Shown here: positions 3,351-36,121 of the stretch, piece by piece
How positions within the stretch are numbered: position 1 is the first letter of the stretch
How the letters are laid out: every line of letters starts with the position of its first letter
NCBI GenBank assembly: GCA_944320255.1
Contig: CALUGU010000002.1
Span: 10,706-74,705 of the forward strand
Source of the DNA: an uncultured Prevotella sp.
GTDB lineage: Bacteria > Bacteroidota > Bacteroidia > Bacteroidales > Bacteroidaceae
Length of the DNA: 64,000 nucleotides
Reading direction: 5' to 3'
Notes under the pieces: model-generated
The model's database searches: none
Told to the model about the DNA's origin: nothing
The model's input: the letters and a program-made list of their open reading frames with translations, nothing else
Translations under genes and position numbers: made by a program

Positions 3351-3377
3351 CGCCCTTGTCGCCGCCCTGTAATCGCT

Positions 3378-3500
3378 TGACTGTCAGGCTGTTTGCAAAG
3401 GCCATCTTTTACACGCTAAAAGATGGTCTTTTGCGTTGCGATTTGCCGTAAATCGCACGGCGTTTTGCCGTCTCTTGCAAAGCCGCCGACAACCGTATGA
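3378..3500. repeat. AAAAG..CTTTT family intergenic repeat
   Basis: AAAGGCCATCTTTT, AAAAGATGGTCTTTTG and GCCGTCTCTTGC units resembling 916..1000. Confidence 0.7.
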
Positions 3501-3587
3501 CTGAAAAAAACGGCGCGGCGGGGATGCGCAGAGCCGTTTTTTTCATTATTTTTGCATCATCATTAGACTAAAGACAAAGGTAAGAGG

Positions 3588-4595
3588 ATGGAAATAAACT
3601 ACAAAATACAGTTCCCCGAAATGATGAAGGGGAAGAAGATACTCTACGTGCACGGCTTCGCCTCGTCGGGACAGTCGGGCACGGTGGCGAAAATCCGCGA
3701 GATGCTTCCCGGCGCAACGGTCATAGCCCCCGACCTGCCCGTACACCCGGAGGAGGCCATCGCCCTGCTCAAGGACACCTGCGAGGCCGAACGCCCCAAC
3801 CTCGTCATCGGCACGTCGATGGGCGGGATGTACGCCGAAATGCTCTACGGCTATGACAGGATATTAGTGAACCCGGCGTTCCAGATGGGCGAGACGATGC
3901 TCAAGCACGGAATGGTGGGCAAGAACACGTTCCTCAACCCGCGGCAGGACAGCGTGCAGGAGTTCATAGTAACCAAGGCTCTGGTGGAGGAATACAAGGA
4001 GGCGACGGCCCGGTGCTTCTCCGCCGTGACGCCGGAGGAGCGCGACAAGCGCGTCTACGGCCTGTTCGGCGACGAAGACCCGGTGGTGCACACGATGGAC
4101 ATCTTCACCGAACATTACCGCAACGCCGTCAGCTTCCACGGCGAGCACCGCATGAACGACAAGATACTGCTGCACTCCGTCATCCCCGTAGTGCGCTGGA
4201 TTGACGACCGCCAGGAGGGCCGCGCGCGACCGATAGTCTACATCGGCATCGACGCCCTGCGCGACGCCCGCGGCAACCAGCAGTCGAGCGCGATGAAGGC
4301 GTACACCTTCCTGCTTGAGTTTTACGACGTCTACATCGTAGCCCCGTCGCCCACGAACGCGCCGGACTACGTGGCGGGCGTGGCCGAATGGGCGCAGCGG
4401 ACGGTCAACGTGCCGGCGTGGAACCACGTGGTGTTCACCAACCGCAAGGACCTTCTTTACGGCGACTACCTCATCGACCCGTCAGACGACTTCGGGGCGG
4501 CCGACTTCGTTGGCACGCGCGTGCGCTTCGGCGACGACACTTTCAAGACGTGGGAGGAGATAATAGAGTTCTTCGGCAGGCTGGGAGGACAGTGA
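3588..4595 (+). CDS. YqiA/YcfP-like alpha/beta hydrolase fused to a degenerate 5'(3')-deoxyribonucleotidase-like HAD domain
   Basis: YVHGFASS, GTSMGG nucleophile elbow, DEDPVV, HGEH; C-terminal VFTNRKDLLYGDYLID...FGDDTFKTWEEI as in NT5C-type HADs. Confidence 0.8.
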   Translation: MEINYKIQFPEMMKGKKILYVHGFASSGQSGTVAKIREMLPGATVIAPDLPVHPEEAIALLKDTCEAERPNLVIGTSMGGMYAEMLYGYDRILVNPAFQMGETMLKHGMVGKNTFLNPRQDSVQEFIVTKALVEEYKEATARCFSAVTPEERDKRVYGLFGDEDPVVHTMDIFTEHYRNAVSFHGEHRMNDKILLHSVIPVVRWIDDRQEGRARPIVYIGIDALRDARGNQQSSAMKAYTFLLEFYDVYIVAPSPTNAPDYVAGVAEWAQRTVNVPAWNHVVFTNRKDLLYGDYLIDPSDDFGAADFVGTRVRFGDDTFKTWEEIIEFFGRLGGQ

Positions 4596-31622: not shown

Positions 31623-31817
31623 TGTTTATTTACCTTAAATATATTGTCTTATCAAAATACAAAGATGCCGAAATGCAGCATCTTTGCGCCTTTGGGTTGC
31701 AAAGATAGTGTAAATCAAGTGAAGCGCAAAATAAAAGTGAGGGAAACAAACTTTTATTTTACATTAAAACCGTGGCAGAACCAATACCTGAGCATAAACG
31801 CATGGCACTAAGGCTTT

Positions 31818-32063
31818 TCATATGGCGTTAATCTCGTCAAGAGACAAACCCGTTATCCGGGCTATTACATCAGGAGACAAACCCAGCCGTTTCGCATTAC
31901 GCGCATTATCCAACTTTTCTTCCGCACGGCCCTCTGCACGGCCCTCGTTTCTCGCATACGCCTCGGTGACGAGGTTGTCACGGTAGATCTTGATTGCCTC
32001 GTCATACTTCATACGGTCTTCCTTTGACAGGGCTGATATGTCTTTTATGTCTTCAATCCTCAT
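31818..32063 (-). CDS. Small protein copying the Rpn C-terminal domain (RpnS-like), 81 aa
   Basis: ATG at 32063, 1 nt after the Rpn TAG; MRIEDIKDISALSKEDRMKYDE...EGRAEGRAEEKLDNARNAKRLGLSPDVIARITGLSLDEINAI. Confidence 0.65.
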   Translation of the reverse strand: MRIEDIKDISALSKEDRMKYDEAIKIYRDNLVTEAYARNEGRAEGRAEEKLDNARNAKRLGLSPDVIARITGLSLDEINAI

Positions 32064-32064
32064 A

Positions 32065-32925
32065 CTACAAGGCGGTAATCTCGTCAAAAGACAAACCCGT
32101 TATCTGGGCTATTACATCAGGAGACAAACCCAGCCGTTTCGCATTACGCGCATTATCTAACTTTTCTTCCGCACGACCCTCTGCACGGCCCTCTGCACGG
32201 CCCTCTGCACGGCCCTCGTTTCTCGCATACGCCTCGGTGACGAGGTTGTCACGGTAGATCTTGATTGCCTCGTCATACTTCATACGGTCTTCCTTTGACA
32301 GGGACGCGATGTCTACAATCTCCTCCAACTTCATAAACACTGCTTTTTTAGCCTTGAAAGGCAACCTTTCCAACACTTCCATATTCTTCAACACATATAT
32401 CCAACGCTCAAAATCAGTCTCACACTCACTTTCGTCCTTGTTGAACGACGGCAACTGCAAGAACACATAGCGCATCTTGTCACTGAAAAGCTCATAGCTG
32501 TCACGGTCGGCCAGCACAACATCGGTGCGCAACTTGTCGGGCAGTCCGTCAAGGCGGAAGTTCATAAAGAACACGCCGTAAACGGCCTTCAAGTCAAACA
32601 TCCAAGACGCGCCGCGCTCACCCTGCCTCACCACCGCCTGCGACACGTAATAAAGCGCACGCTCGCGGAAATTCTGCTGCCGGCGGTTCTGCATTTCCAC
32701 GATAAACTGCTCGCCGTCCTCGTTCGTGCAATAAATATCGTAAATACAGCTCCTGTCCTCGATGGTGCCGCCAAGCACTTCCTTATCGAGGAAACGGATG
32801 TCTTTGATATGTTTCTCGCCCACAAGCAGACTGTTAAGGAAGTCTATCAACAAATCTTTGTTGATTTCTTGCCCGAAGATGCGCTTGAAGCCCACGTCCG
32901 TGAACGGATTGATAAACCTTGCCAT
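32065..32925 (-). CDS. Rpn-family PD-(D/E)xK nuclease (annotated as putative transposase)
   Basis: FINPFTDVGFKRIFG, IYDIYC...FIVEMQ, RALYY, YVFLQLPSF, FERWIYVLKNM; EGRA repeats and HTH-like tail. Confidence 0.9.
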   Translation of the reverse strand: MARFINPFTDVGFKRIFGQEINKDLLIDFLNSLLVGEKHIKDIRFLDKEVLGGTIEDRSCIYDIYCTNEDGEQFIVEMQNRRQQNFRERALYYVSQAVVRQGERGASWMFDLKAVYGVFFMNFRLDGLPDKLRTDVVLADRDSYELFSDKMRYVFLQLPSFNKDESECETDFERWIYVLKNMEVLERLPFKAKKAVFMKLEEIVDIASLSKEDRMKYDEAIKIYRDNLVTEAYARNEGRAEGRAEGRAEGRAEEKLDNARNAKRLGLSPDVIAQITGLSFDEITAL

Positions 32926-32989
32926 TGCGTAAAGTCTTTTCTATACCGCAAAAATAATGTTTTTTATCGTAAACGCAAAACAAAAACAC

Positions 32990-33385
32990 AGGAAAATACG
33001 GCAAAACGCACGCCAAAAGGCCGTCATCTGCAACCCAAGAAACGGTCTCTTGGAAAACAATCGGCAACGGCTTGACAGCCAAGGACATACAACCGCAAGA
33101 ACACGCAATACAAAAAGGCAACAAAAAAGCGGCCTTTGGCAACGCCAAAAGCCGCTTCCAGGAAACTGTTTTTGATTTTTTTGTCCGATGTTTTTAGATG
33201 TATTACCAAGACGTTTACGATTACATTTTTCGACGTTTAGCACGCTAAACTTTCTCAAAAAACAAATGGAAACGGCTGGTAAGACGCTAAAAACACGGCC
33301 AAAGGACATCGGAAACGCCCAAAAACGGCGTCCTGAAAAAACCAGAAACAGTTTCTCAAAATAATGACAACGGCAAAACGCCGCC
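32990..33385. repeat. Long degenerate AAAAG..CTTTT-family tract
   Basis: Phased A/T tracts with AAAAGGCCGTCATC, AAAAGCGGCCTTTG and AAAAGCCGCTT units. Confidence 0.55.
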
Positions 33386-33389
33386 TTGA

Positions 33390-33908
33390 TTACATCTTCA
33401 CCTTAATGTGTTTCATTACAGCGTAGCCGCCAAATACTTGCACGAGGATGCCCGGCCAGCCCAAGCGGACGTCTTGGAGGGCGTCGGCAAGCGAACCGGT
33501 CACGCCCCACTCGGCGAGCATTCCCGCCGCCTGATAAGCCACTACGGCCAAAGCGACAGCCCAAAGGGCCACGCCGCGCACGCGGGAAGCTATGCCGGCG
33601 GCGGCCAAGGCGAGCAATACCGACTTGATGAGGATGGTGGGCAGCGACGCCGCAGCAGGCATCCCGAAGAACAGGCTGTTGACAACAGGCGAGGCAATGG
33701 CCGTCAAGAGACCTGCCGTAAGGCCGAACTTATAGGCCGCTACAAGCGTGAAGAAATAGATGGGGAGCCACACTAAGCCGCCTTGCGGCACCAAGTGGCA
33801 CAACTGGGGCAGCACGATGTTGCCCGCAACGAACAGCGCGGCCATCATGTAGGCGCGGCTGTCGCGGCAGCTCAATGAGCAAACCGCCGATGCAGATGTC
33901 GTTTTCAT
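33390..33908 (-). CDS. ECF transporter S-component-like membrane protein
   Basis: GNIVLPQLCHL..GG..WLPIYFFTLVAAYKFG..AGLLTAIASPVVNSLFFGMP; about 5-6 TM helices. Confidence 0.7.
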   Translation of the reverse strand: MKTTSASAVCSLSCRDSRAYMMAALFVAGNIVLPQLCHLVPQGGLVWLPIYFFTLVAAYKFGLTAGLLTAIASPVVNSLFFGMPAAASLPTILIKSVLLALAAAGIASRVRGVALWAVALAVVAYQAAGMLAEWGVTGSLADALQDVRLGWPGILVQVFGGYAVMKHIKVKM

Positions 33909-34606: not shown

Positions 34607-36121
34607 TCATACGTCCTGCTTCAGCGTCTCCACGAACTCGTCAATGCGTTGCATCTCCTTCGGGATGTTTATTCCCTGCGGACAATGGTCTACACATTGG
34701 CCGCAACCGATGCAGTGGTCGGCCTGGCGGAGGCGGGGAACGCTGCGGTCGTAGCCTATCAGGAAGGCGCGGCGCGCACGCCGGTACTCACTCATAGCAG
34801 ACGAGTTACGAGTTGACGAGTTGACAAGAGGATTTGCATTGTTGGCTTGTCTGCTCGTCTGCTCGTCTGCTCGTCTACTTGTTTGCTTGTCTGCTTGTCC
34901 GTTTGTCTGCTCAACCACAGGCATATTGCCTTCCTTTATGCACCTGTTATAATGTAAAAGAATGCCCGGAATGTCTATTCCGTAAGGACAAGGCATGCAG
35001 TATTTGCAGTCGTTGCAGGGTATTGTCTTCAGGTTGTAGATGTCGCCGGCAATCTCCATGAGGAACTTCCGCTCCTCGCCCGTCAGCGGTTTCAGCGGCG
35101 AATAGGTGCAAAGGTTTTCACGAAGGTGCTCCATGTAAGTCATTCCAGACAGCACGGTGAGCACCCCGTCCGGCGTTCCGGCGAAGCGGAAAGCCCACGA
35201 CGCCACGCTCTGCTCAGGCTCACGCTGCTTCATCTTGGCCACGATGGCGTCGGGCACGTTGGCCAGGCGGCCGCCAAGCAACGGCTCCATGATTATGGCC
35301 GGTATGCCGCGCTTTTTCAGTTCGCCGTACAGATACACGGCGTCAGTGTTGCGCTTGTTAATCTCGTCGGCATAGTTCCAGTCGAGATAGTTAAGCTCTA
35401 TCTGCACAAAGTCCCAATGGTAACGCCCCTCGTCGTGCCAACGCAGCAGCATGTCGTATATCTTCACGTCGCCGTGATACGAGAAACCGAGGTTGCGTAT
35501 GCGTCCTTTGCGCTTCTGCTCAACGAGCCAGTCGAGTATGCCGTTGTCCATATAACGGCTGTTGAACATACCAAGCGCATCCTTGCCCTGCCCTATCGAG
35601 TGGAGCAGCAGATAGTCAACATAGTCAACCTGAAGCTCCTTGAGCGAGTTCTCGAACATCTTTATCGACTCCTCGCGAGGCCAAGTTTCTGGCGAGAAGT
35701 TCGACATCTTGGTTGCAATGAAGTACTCCGACCGCTTGTGGCGGCTCAAGGCGATGCCCGTGGCGCGCTCCGACTTGCCCTGGCAGTAGGCGGGCGACGT
35801 GTCAAAATAGTTGACTCCGTGCTCTATCGCATAGTCAACCTGGCGGTTCACCATCTCTTGGTCGATGTCCATCTCGCCCGTCCCTGTTGACGGGTCTTTG
35901 CCCTCGTTCTTGTCAGGCAGGCGCATCATGCCGTAACCCAAGAGCGACACGCGGTCCTTCGTGTTGGGGTTCACCCTGTAAGTCATCTTCCCTTTCTCCG
36001 GCTCCTGCTGCCTGGCGGTGGTCTGCTTGTCGTCCTTGCATGCCGCGAGCAACGCCGACGAAGCAACGGCCCCGCCTCCGAGAGCCTTCAGGAAATTGCG
36101 TCTTGATATGTCTTTTGCCAT
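34607..36121 (-). CDS. Tat-exported aldo/keto reductase with C-terminal 4Fe-4S domain (lipoprotein)
   Basis: SRRNFLK...LLAAC signal; SLLGYGMMRL, YFDTSPAY, IATKM, DYLLLH, IMEPLLGG; CNDCKYCMPC and CIGCGQCVDHCP. Confidence 0.9.
   Translation of the reverse strand: MAKDISRRNFLKALGGGAVASSALLAACKDDKQTTARQQEPEKGKMTYRVNPNTKDRVSLLGYGMMRLPDKNEGKDPSTGTGEMDIDQEMVNRQVDYAIEHGVNYFDTSPAYCQGKSERATGIALSRHKRSEYFIATKMSNFSPETWPREESIKMFENSLKELQVDYVDYLLLHSIGQGKDALGMFNSRYMDNGILDWLVEQKRKGRIRNLGFSYHGDVKIYDMLLRWHDEGRYHWDFVQIELNYLDWNYADEINKRNTDAVYLYGELKKRGIPAIIMEPLLGGRLANVPDAIVAKMKQREPEQSVASWAFRFAGTPDGVLTVLSGMTYMEHLRENLCTYSPLKPLTGEERKFLMEIAGDIYNLKTIPCNDCKYCMPCPYGIDIPGILLHYNRCIKEGNMPVVEQTNGQADKQTSRRADEQTSRQANNANPLVNSSTRNSSAMSEYRRARRAFLIGYDRSVPRLRQADHCIGCGQCVDHCPQGINIPKEMQRIDEFVETLKQDV

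Follow-up and report, generated by a model that had tools for sequence, protein, structure and literature searches.

An Rpn nuclease gene and a free-standing copy of its C-terminal domain in Prevotella: an old tandem duplication with signs of recombination between the copies

Introduction

The Rpn proteins of Escherichia coli are toxic nucleases that carry the means of their own inhibition: the C-terminal domain is also made as a separate small protein, RpnS, from an internal start, and this protein binds RpnL and inhibits it (Zhong et al., PNAS 2023; PMC10400941). The helix shared by Rpn proteins contains repeats of 4 amino acids (aa) that vary between strains, including those of Bacteroides fragilis, and RpnC is inhibited solely by an RpnS of equal repeat number, a mismatch of one repeat abolishing inhibition (PMC10400941). 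A plasmid-encoded Rpn protects against certain phages (PMC10400941). Separate downstream RpnS genes (rpnSs) have also been described, namely ypaA, which follows rpnE, and, in some strains, a copy behind rpnC; the ypaA product, RpnE-Ss, is made, such genes can be lost through deletion or through fusion with rpn's N-terminal domain, and their annotation with PF14261 (DUF4351) applies to 'some species' only (PMC10400941). Here, we analyse a pair of this kind in a 64,000-nucleotide stretch of DNA from an uncultured Prevotella sp. (contig CALUGU010000002.1, positions 10,706 to 74,705; hereafter 'the window'), in which an rpn gene is followed by a free-standing copy of its own C-terminal domain. Comparison with related loci points to an old duplication whose members have continued to recombine, and to a small downstream gene that is very likely translated.

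Zhong et al. observed that downstream copies cluster with their own upstream gene and read this as a sign of independent origins (PMC10400941); gene conversion is mentioned neither in that paper nor in its commentary. The origins of C-terminal repeat variation in Rpn proteins and of the downstream copies were left open, and the loci described here bear on both. An original prediction, made from the sequence of the window, had taken the small open reading frame (ORF) for an older, selected and separate gene kept in step with the nuclease gene by conversion; the existence of separate downstream rpnSs genes and their loss by fusion, already reported in the paper behind that prediction (PMC10400941), had gone unnoticed there.

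An old duplication with homogenised cores

The C-terminal region of the window's rpn product (unit A) recurs directly downstream on the same strand as a free-standing ORF of 81 aa (unit B), separated from the rpn stop codon by a single nucleotide (nt) (Table 1); the same 1-nt spacing is present in a sister species (locus L018). A repeat finder returned direct repeats at 31824-31946 / 32071-32193 with 96% identity and a second direct-repeat family at 31921-32064 / 32192-32335 with 91% identity. In a gapped alignment the cores of the two units are set apart by 4 substitutions and a single gap of 24 nt, which corresponds to two 4-aa repeats inside the 12-nt array GCACGGCCCTCT identified by Tandem Repeats Finder. 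Outside the core, the initial ~32 nt of the units are ~60% identical and encode similar peptides (MKLEEIVDIAS in A, MRIEDIKDISA in B), and the unit ends differ (ITAL-TAG in A, INAI-TGA in B). Two copies of 200 nt at 98% identity cannot have arisen by chance. The alignment thus agrees with the original prediction in its particulars: a near-identical core, flanks in which the DNA has diverged and the protein has remained similar, a start codon for the copy 1 nt after the Rpn stop, and an internal MKYDE methionine in both copies (Met215 of Rpn, Met18 of the small ORF).

Table 1. Features of the rpn locus and its downstream copy, in window coordinates
Feature	Position	Strand	Description	Evidence
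rpn gene (RpnL-type)	32065..32925	-	286 aa, stop TAG 32065-32067	ORF list
Predicted PD-(D/E)XK nuclease domain	32335..32925	-	rpn codons 1-197, unduplicated	Pfam match
Unit A, copy within the nuclease gene	32065..32334	-	rpn codons 198-286 and stop, MKLEEIVDIASLSKEDRMKYDE...EITAL-stop	Alignments
Unit B, free-standing 81-aa ORF, rpnSs-type	31818..32063	-	MRIEDIKDISALSKEDRMKYDE...EINAI-stop; ATG 32063-32061, stop TGA	ORF list
Spacer, rpn stop to small-ORF ATG	32064..32064	-	1 nt	Read from sequence
Near-identical core, unit A (putative converted tract)	32071..32303	.		Repeat finder, gapped alignment, site patterns
Near-identical core, unit B (putative converted tract)	31824..32032	.		Repeat finder, gapped alignment, site patterns
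12-nt (4-aa RAEG) array, unit A	32171..32217	.	3.9 copies	Tandem Repeats Finder
12-nt array, unit B	31924..31946	.	1.9 copies	Tandem Repeats Finder
Small-ORF codons 1-12, copy-specific, unconverted	32028..32063	-		Purifying selection
Met182 codon (MEVLERLP), candidate internal start	32380..32382	-	No variation in 36 homologs	Alignment
Met198 codon, candidate internal start	32332..32334	-	First unit A codon, homologous to the small-ORF ATG	
Met215 codon (MKYDE) of rpn	32281..32283	-	Small-ORF counterpart Met18 at 32010-32012	
-7 promoter motif match (TAnnTTTG), TATTTTTG	32949..32956	-	24 nt 5' of the rpn ATG	Pattern search, consensus match only

The tandem is not an artefact of assembly, since its DNA is found at 100% identity in at least 5 independent metagenome assemblies and the nearest GTDB genome, a hifiasm/HiFi chromosome of an uncultured Prevotella sp. 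(OZ006992.1, L018), has the same tandem pair. Public sequencing runs holding the tandem DNA are mostly chicken-gut or faecal metagenomes.

In the loci of the sister species (L009-L018, n=10) the same pair is directly followed by glyS and an FKBP-domain gene. Compared with these loci, the window's glyS is 91.5-91.9% and its nuclease domain 85.5% identical at the nucleotide level. In both species unit A starts with MKLEEIVDIAS and ends in TAG, and unit B starts with MR[IV]EDIKDI[SA]A and ends in TGA. Because the copy-specific 5' flanks and stop codons are common to both, the duplication is old and, judged by these features, took place before at least two Prevotella species had diverged. The alternative of an independent duplication in each species is ruled out by the common 5' flanks, the TAG/TGA stops and the 1-nt spacer.

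The core tells of a different history. Quartet site patterns were scored between the window and 7 relatives over 234 aligned non-repeat positions. Sites that group orthologs number 8-10 and lie at nt 5-31, at nt 141 (once) and in the stop codon; those that unite both copies of one genome number 16-19 and lie, with the exception of nt 6, nearly all at nt 51-223; no site in these comparisons supports the third possible grouping. The sequence IKIYRD, for instance, is found in both copies of the window and IKVYRD in both copies of every relative. As sites in the core are alike within a genome and unlike between species, gene conversion is supported, and by these patterns the cores have been repeatedly homogenised within lineages, as had been proposed from the window by itself. 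These loci show that clustering of a downstream copy with its upstream gene can also stem from conversion after an old duplication.

Exchange between A and B is, to judge from public runs, continuing inside the window's species: the A copy carries the B state at 32158 in runs X9 and X13, and the B copy carries the A state at 31858 in several runs. In the window's own lineage, conversion appears to have run from the nuclease gene to the small gene, because the small-gene repeat is of the RAEG type.

Synteny between the two Prevotella species holds on the glyS side of the pair only. Upstream of rpn (window positions 32926-33908, compared with L010-L017), the window has genes for a membrane protein of 172 aa, a member of the TM1506 family and an aldo-keto reductase; in their place the sister species has an SDR gene, KduI and TyrRS. 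Identity between the two over the 175 nt upstream of rpn is ~70%. A third Prevotella species (L019; GlyRS 97% identical in aa) has an rpn gene at its glyS locus (3354-4267) that is split by a frameshift, with a single A-type C-terminal domain and without the small ORF; an intact 285-aa version of this gene exists (P0113).

Fused alleles and relocated cassettes

A full-length protein search recovered a cluster of 278-aa proteins (P0111, P0231 and P0232). Two corresponding loci, L098 and L099, share the window's nuclease domain in full (591/591 nt), followed by an A-type 5' flank, B-type repeats and a B-type C-terminus and stop, and then by unit B's 195-nt spacer and glyS. This structure is what recombination between the two cores would be expected to produce. 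The fused contigs carry a private single-nucleotide polymorphism (SNP) that is found in neither window copy. Amongst Logan contigs, the junction 31948-32145 is wholly missing in runs X5-X7 (~20x) and X8 (~5x) and is found in runs X1, X9 and X13; in one contig of X8, 31942 is followed immediately by 32166. On this contig evidence, the window's species is polymorphic for tandem and fused alleles.

Exchange is also apparent in a Bacteroides family (L029, L100 and L102-L104), in which the pair lies between a GH43 gene and metF. Here the 5' flanks are fixed in position (33/72 nt identical between A and B, 70-74 of 72-75 between orthologs), and the core is 95-100% identical between copies. The cassettes that follow, each made up of repeats plus a helix-turn-helix (HTH), are arranged differently from strain to strain: the nuclease gene and small gene carry, respectively, cassettes X' and X in L100, X' and Y in L102, and Y and X in both L103 and L104; in L029 the nuclease gene carries a mosaic of X and Y and the small gene X. 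With 99.3% identity in the nuclease domain and 98.8% in metF, L102 and L103 come from a single species, and their Y cassettes, which occupy the small gene in the former and the nuclease gene in the latter, match at 164/170 nt; the two cassettes of one genome have ~70% identity plus a 72-nt indel. Since cassette Y is found in either position within one species, whole C-terminal cassettes have been exchanged, and these arrangements show swapping between the small and nuclease genes in a Bacteroides species.

Such swaps admit a reading in which exchange is the point of the arrangement: the pair would be a two-slot cassette system, and not mainly an antitoxin, with homologous recombination moving alternative repeat-plus-HTH cassettes between the genes and so switching the partner specificity of a defence toxin. 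The Rpn nuclease itself would possibly stimulate this recombination, and a lineage would be able to switch specificity and keep both alleles. This proposal is tentative, and on balance we think it doubtful.

Recurrence outside the window's species

Retrieval with the small ORF yielded 80 GTDB loci, dominated by Bacteroidales, of which 57 hold a full-length Rpn. A downstream copy of the C-terminal domain alone accompanies 6 of these 57, a proportion that is no estimate of frequency, as the sample is skewed to query-like sequences. The copies occur in Prevotella (L018), Phocaeicola (L022), Bacteroides sp. Marseille-P3684 (L029), Gallipaludibacter (L031, interrupted by a stop), B. gallinaceum (L032) and Sangeribacter (L074, at a contig end), so that the recurrence on which the original prediction had staked itself was found in five genera. 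By a bias of its word-based candidate step, a protein search with the small ORF gave short proteins only, and the full-length search was run apart, returning 5835 homologs at an expectation value (E) below 1e-30. A search of a representative library at E up to 0.001 returned 23,203 representatives, a number not used as a frequency; about two thirds of the top 150 are at most 140 aa long, and many of these may be contig-end fragments.

Two further kinds of sequence were met among these loci. 'Mini-Rpn' ORFs in L085 (3968-4189) and L092 (3905-4291) join the first ~15 Rpn residues (RYINPYTDF motif) to the repeat/HTH tail, the nuclease core having been deleted in frame, and represent a third route to a tail-only protein beside tandem copies and 5'-truncated orphans (L021, L024, L025 and L081). 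The rpn gene and small copy of L031 (1297-1635; a 'Candidatus Gallipaludibacter' metagenome-assembled genome (MAG)) and of L032 (4263-4601; Bacteroides gallinaceum) are near-identical, and the small copy of the former contains an internal stop (TDWE, stop, GFAQ); this likeness could reflect horizontal transfer, contamination of the MAG or sequencing error.

Is the small ORF a gene?

Decay of the small ORF in related strains, which the original prediction had named as a sign against itself, was looked for: the frame is open in all tandem loci examined in both species. Around 20 further protein clusters, of 77 to 97 aa, differ for the most part in their 12-nt repeats, through in-frame changes. 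The core could be kept open by conversion from a nuclease gene under selection, so that the informative region is the private 5' flank. Across the 12 unconverted codons at its start, comparison with L011 gives 7 synonymous changes at 7.3 sites and 2 non-synonymous changes, both conservative, at 28.7 sites (Fisher p = 4e-6; local synonymous divergence (pS) ~0.96). Purifying selection on these private codons argues that the small ORF is very likely translated, and the pattern indicates translation from the ATG at 32063, beyond any from the internal MKYDE methionine alone. Together with copy-specific flanks that persist across species, it favours the older, selected and separate gene that had been foreseen.

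The same codons bear on two explanations in which the small protein does nothing. The first would make unit B a functionless relic of tandem duplication, repaired by conversion from the selected nuclease gene; its core is indeed homogenised with that gene, RefSeq labels ypaA of E. coli K-12 a pseudogene (L105, 12817-13002), the L031 copy has its internal stop and fusion has removed the copy in some strains. A relic is nonetheless very unlikely, because the unconverted start codon, codons 1-12 and stop are conserved across species despite saturated synonymous change, and independent cases of downstream copies are known from several genera.

The second would make the ORF mainly a silent donor cassette of the pilS/pilE type, serving to vary the C-terminus of the nuclease, with its protein irrelevant. 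Here, the nuclease-gene alleles of the sister species are suggestive, being complementary mosaics, each partly identical to a near-invariant small-gene copy, as are the existence of fused alleles and the differing position of cassettes between strains. Against a silent donor stand the ATG and open frame kept everywhere, the 7 synonymous against 2 non-synonymous changes in codons 1-12 and the apparent direction of conversion in the window's lineage, from nuclease gene to small gene; we consider it the least probable of the explanations weighed here.

The nuclease and its C-terminal domain

The rpn product matches PF12784 (PDDEXK_2) with E 2.3e-62 over residues 7-227 (222/229 profile positions), and scores 112.8 bits (cut-off 52.1) against NCBIfam TIGR01784 (COG5464), the Rpn family of recombination-promoting nucleases / putative transposases. 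The D63...E77-x-Q79 columns of the predicted nuclease domain do not vary across 36 homologs, and rpn codons 1-197 differ from sister-species orthologs with pS 0.57 and a non-synonymous divergence (pN) of 0.036 (pN/pS 0.06). The small ORF matches TIGR01784 at tail positions 198-272 alone (E 3e-9). Its relatives are assigned PF27070 (HTH_Rpn_C); a search of the small ORF against a Pfam set without PF27070 gave no matches, and DUF4351 (PF14261), which is not class-defining, was absent from it at E up to 1.

A profile built from 52 homologs of the small ORF matches the structure of E. coli RpnA-S (7TH0) with E 1.9e-5. The AlphaFold model of the small ORF (predicted local distance difference test (pLDDT) 80) places helices at residues 14-59, 64-71 and 75-80, and Foldseek aligns it to 7TH0 with probability 0.85, a target TM-score of 0.76, a root-mean-square deviation of 1.0 A and 34% identity over 38 columns. 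In these models the C-terminal domain is a long helix containing the 4-aa repeats, followed by a small HTH. The corresponding model of the full-length rpn product (pLDDT 49.5) was too poor and was left unused.

Residues 249-278 of Rpn and 44-73 of the small ORF, EGRAEEKLDNARNAKRLGLSPDVIA, are similar to the consensus of designer pentatricopeptide-repeat (PPR) proteins, and whole-sequence E-values against the PDB are misleadingly small because of this resemblance; the PPR-protein matches were rejected as spurious, each stretch having E near 100 and the total summing over designer repeats.

Transcription, starts and surroundings

Within the region of the pair, the Bacteroidetes -7 motif (TAnnTTTG) has a sole match on the minus strand, TATTTTTG, upstream of the rpn start (Table 1), and a pattern search found none inside rpn on that strand; the pair is therefore probably one transcript, with rpn and the small ORF co-transcribed. 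A scan for sigma-70 promoters is uninformative in Bacteroidota, and a search for RNA runs returned none. The candidate internal methionines of rpn are Met182, Met198 and Met215 (Table 1), and many stand-alone homologs begin at the position equivalent to Met182. A TTG start at 32087, which would extend the small ORF to 89 aa, was ruled out by the differing upstream extensions of relatives.

Downstream, between the small-ORF stop and the glyS ATG (31622), the minus strand at 31659-31707 contains a further -7 motif match, the TATCTTTG box (31700-31707), and 3' of it a hairpin with a 12-bp stem (31687-31659) and then a T-rich tail, which could either terminate the rpn operon or form a structured leader of glyS. 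Elsewhere in the window, a 504-aa aldo-keto reductase / ferredoxin-type protein (34607-36121, minus strand) has a stretch of low complexity, ...QADKQTSRRADEQTSRQANN..., inserted close to its C-terminal third.

Modulator, recombination partner or both?

We favour a dual reading, with a probability of roughly 0.6: the small gene would encode a translated modulator of the nuclease and would also serve as its recombination partner, within an rpnL-rpnSs module. By analogy with RpnS and RpnSs, the small protein would pair with the nuclease's C-terminal helix and keep it inactive, or at least modulate it; as a nearby recombination partner, the small gene would likewise supply alternative C-terminal alleles to the nuclease gene.

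Several observations weigh against this dual reading. Firstly, the repeats of the two copies seldom match. Tandem loci have 0-6 extra RAEG repeats in the nuclease gene and 1-5 extra [RYF]A[EK]G repeats in the small gene, and homologous 77-aa products have none. The numbers of extra repeats (nuclease/small gene) are 3/1 in the window and 0/5, 1/2, 4/3, 3/3, 4/3, 3/3, 0/3, 1/3, 6/3 and 1/5 in 10 relatives, so that adjacent copies are equal in 2/11 genomes; their repeat sequences also mostly differ (RAEG vs RAKG/YAEG/FAEG). Run X13 has a 24-nt deletion within the unit A array, and the set of counts as a whole shows repeat number changing independently in each copy. With unequal numbers in 9/11 genomes and the matching rule of E. 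coli RpnC, the small protein may fail to neutralise its neighbour; if the RpnC rule holds here, it would often be unable to bind that neighbour, and a matched antitoxin would need an internal start, for which the invariant Met182 is a candidate. Secondly, the surroundings offer little sign of a role in defence: the neighbours of the pair (glyS, the FKBP-domain gene and the aldo-keto reductase) are housekeeping genes, no defence island is evident from them, and a PADLOC scan for defence systems returned no matches. Thirdly, the fused alleles of assemblies in the European Nucleotide Archive, taken alone, could result from loop-skipping by the assembler, an explanation disfavoured by their private SNP and by the absence of the junction k-mers from Logan contigs.

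The mismatch also weighs on the simplest use of the precedent, in which the small ORF does no more than supply the adjacent nuclease with a second, dedicated antitoxin and exchange between the copies is an unselected by-product of tandem homology. E. coli provides a model in ypaA, whose product RpnE-Ss is presumed an antitoxin (PMC10400941), and both the operon-like 1-nt spacing and the purifying selection on the private N-terminus fit this. Such an antitoxin would, by the RpnC rule under which a difference of one repeat abolishes inhibition, be matched to its neighbour only in the two genomes with equal counts, and in the Bacteroides family quite different cassettes are often found in the two copies of a genome. 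We therefore regard a purely dedicated antitoxin as unlikely.

The mismatch could instead mean that the small protein acts elsewhere, either neutralising another Rpn paralogue of equal repeat number or, given its C-terminal HTH fold, regulating the operon; Bacteroidales appear rich in Rpn paralogues, judging by the homologs returned in the full-length search. No second Rpn lies within the 64-kb window, however, and both the linkage and the co-variation of the small gene are with the adjacent gene, which leaves an action elsewhere highly improbable.

Comparison with known systems

The loci described here make three outcomes of recombination visible: homogenisation, deletion-fusion and, within one species, relocation of a whole cassette. 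They also make the assumption that a downstream copy is a spare antitoxin testable in the abundant Bacteroidales of the gut, because adjacent copies mostly differ in repeat number and a mismatch blocks binding in E. coli. The gain is modest, since the architecture has already been published for rpnE-ypaA; what is added is evidence of recombination between the copies and of their mostly unequal repeat numbers.

The closest described systems are rpnE-ypaA and rpnC-rpnC-Ss, in which, as here, a small ORF directly downstream on the same strand duplicates the C-terminal domain of Rpn. Direct comparison with rpnE-ypaA of E. coli K-12 places ypaA 12 nt after rpnE, with a diverged 3' end and with a near-identical stretch that spans the internal ribosome-binding site (RBS) and start and contains one 12-nt repeat difference. 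The window's pair shares the near-identical core, the diverged 3' end, the difference in number of 12-nt / 4-aa repeats and a duplicated unit that starts at the region of the internal RpnS start, a candidate one here (Met198); as with rpnSs genes in E. coli, the copy can be lost by fusion of the nuclease domain to it, and it is closest to its own upstream gene. The pair differs from the E. coli examples in its host phylum, Bacteroidota, and in its nuclease domain, which is PF12784 (PDDEXK_2) here and is described for the E. coli proteins as PF04754 (PMC5350276). The copy is also longer than ypaA (81 against 61 aa) and starts before the long helix, and its spacer is 1 nt without duplication of the RBS, unlike the 12 nt and duplicated RBS of E. 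coli.

With the intragenic RpnS of RpnA/B/C (7TH0) the small protein shares a homologous C-terminal HTH and hypervariable 4-aa repeats in a long helix; unlike them, it has a gene of its own. The arrangement resembles type II toxin-antitoxin operons in setting the gene for a toxic enzyme, here predicted, beside a small helical/HTH partner on what is probably one transcript, and departs from them in having as partner a paralogue of a domain of the toxin itself, and in placing the toxin gene first. Finally, as in pilE/pilS and vlsE, a variable segment is exchanged between an expressed gene and a partial copy close by; here, unlike in those systems, only one cassette exists, oriented as a direct repeat, exchange seems to run both ways and the cassette is itself a coding gene under selection, retaining the ATG, open frame and signature of purifying selection that set it apart from the silent donors of pilS and vls.

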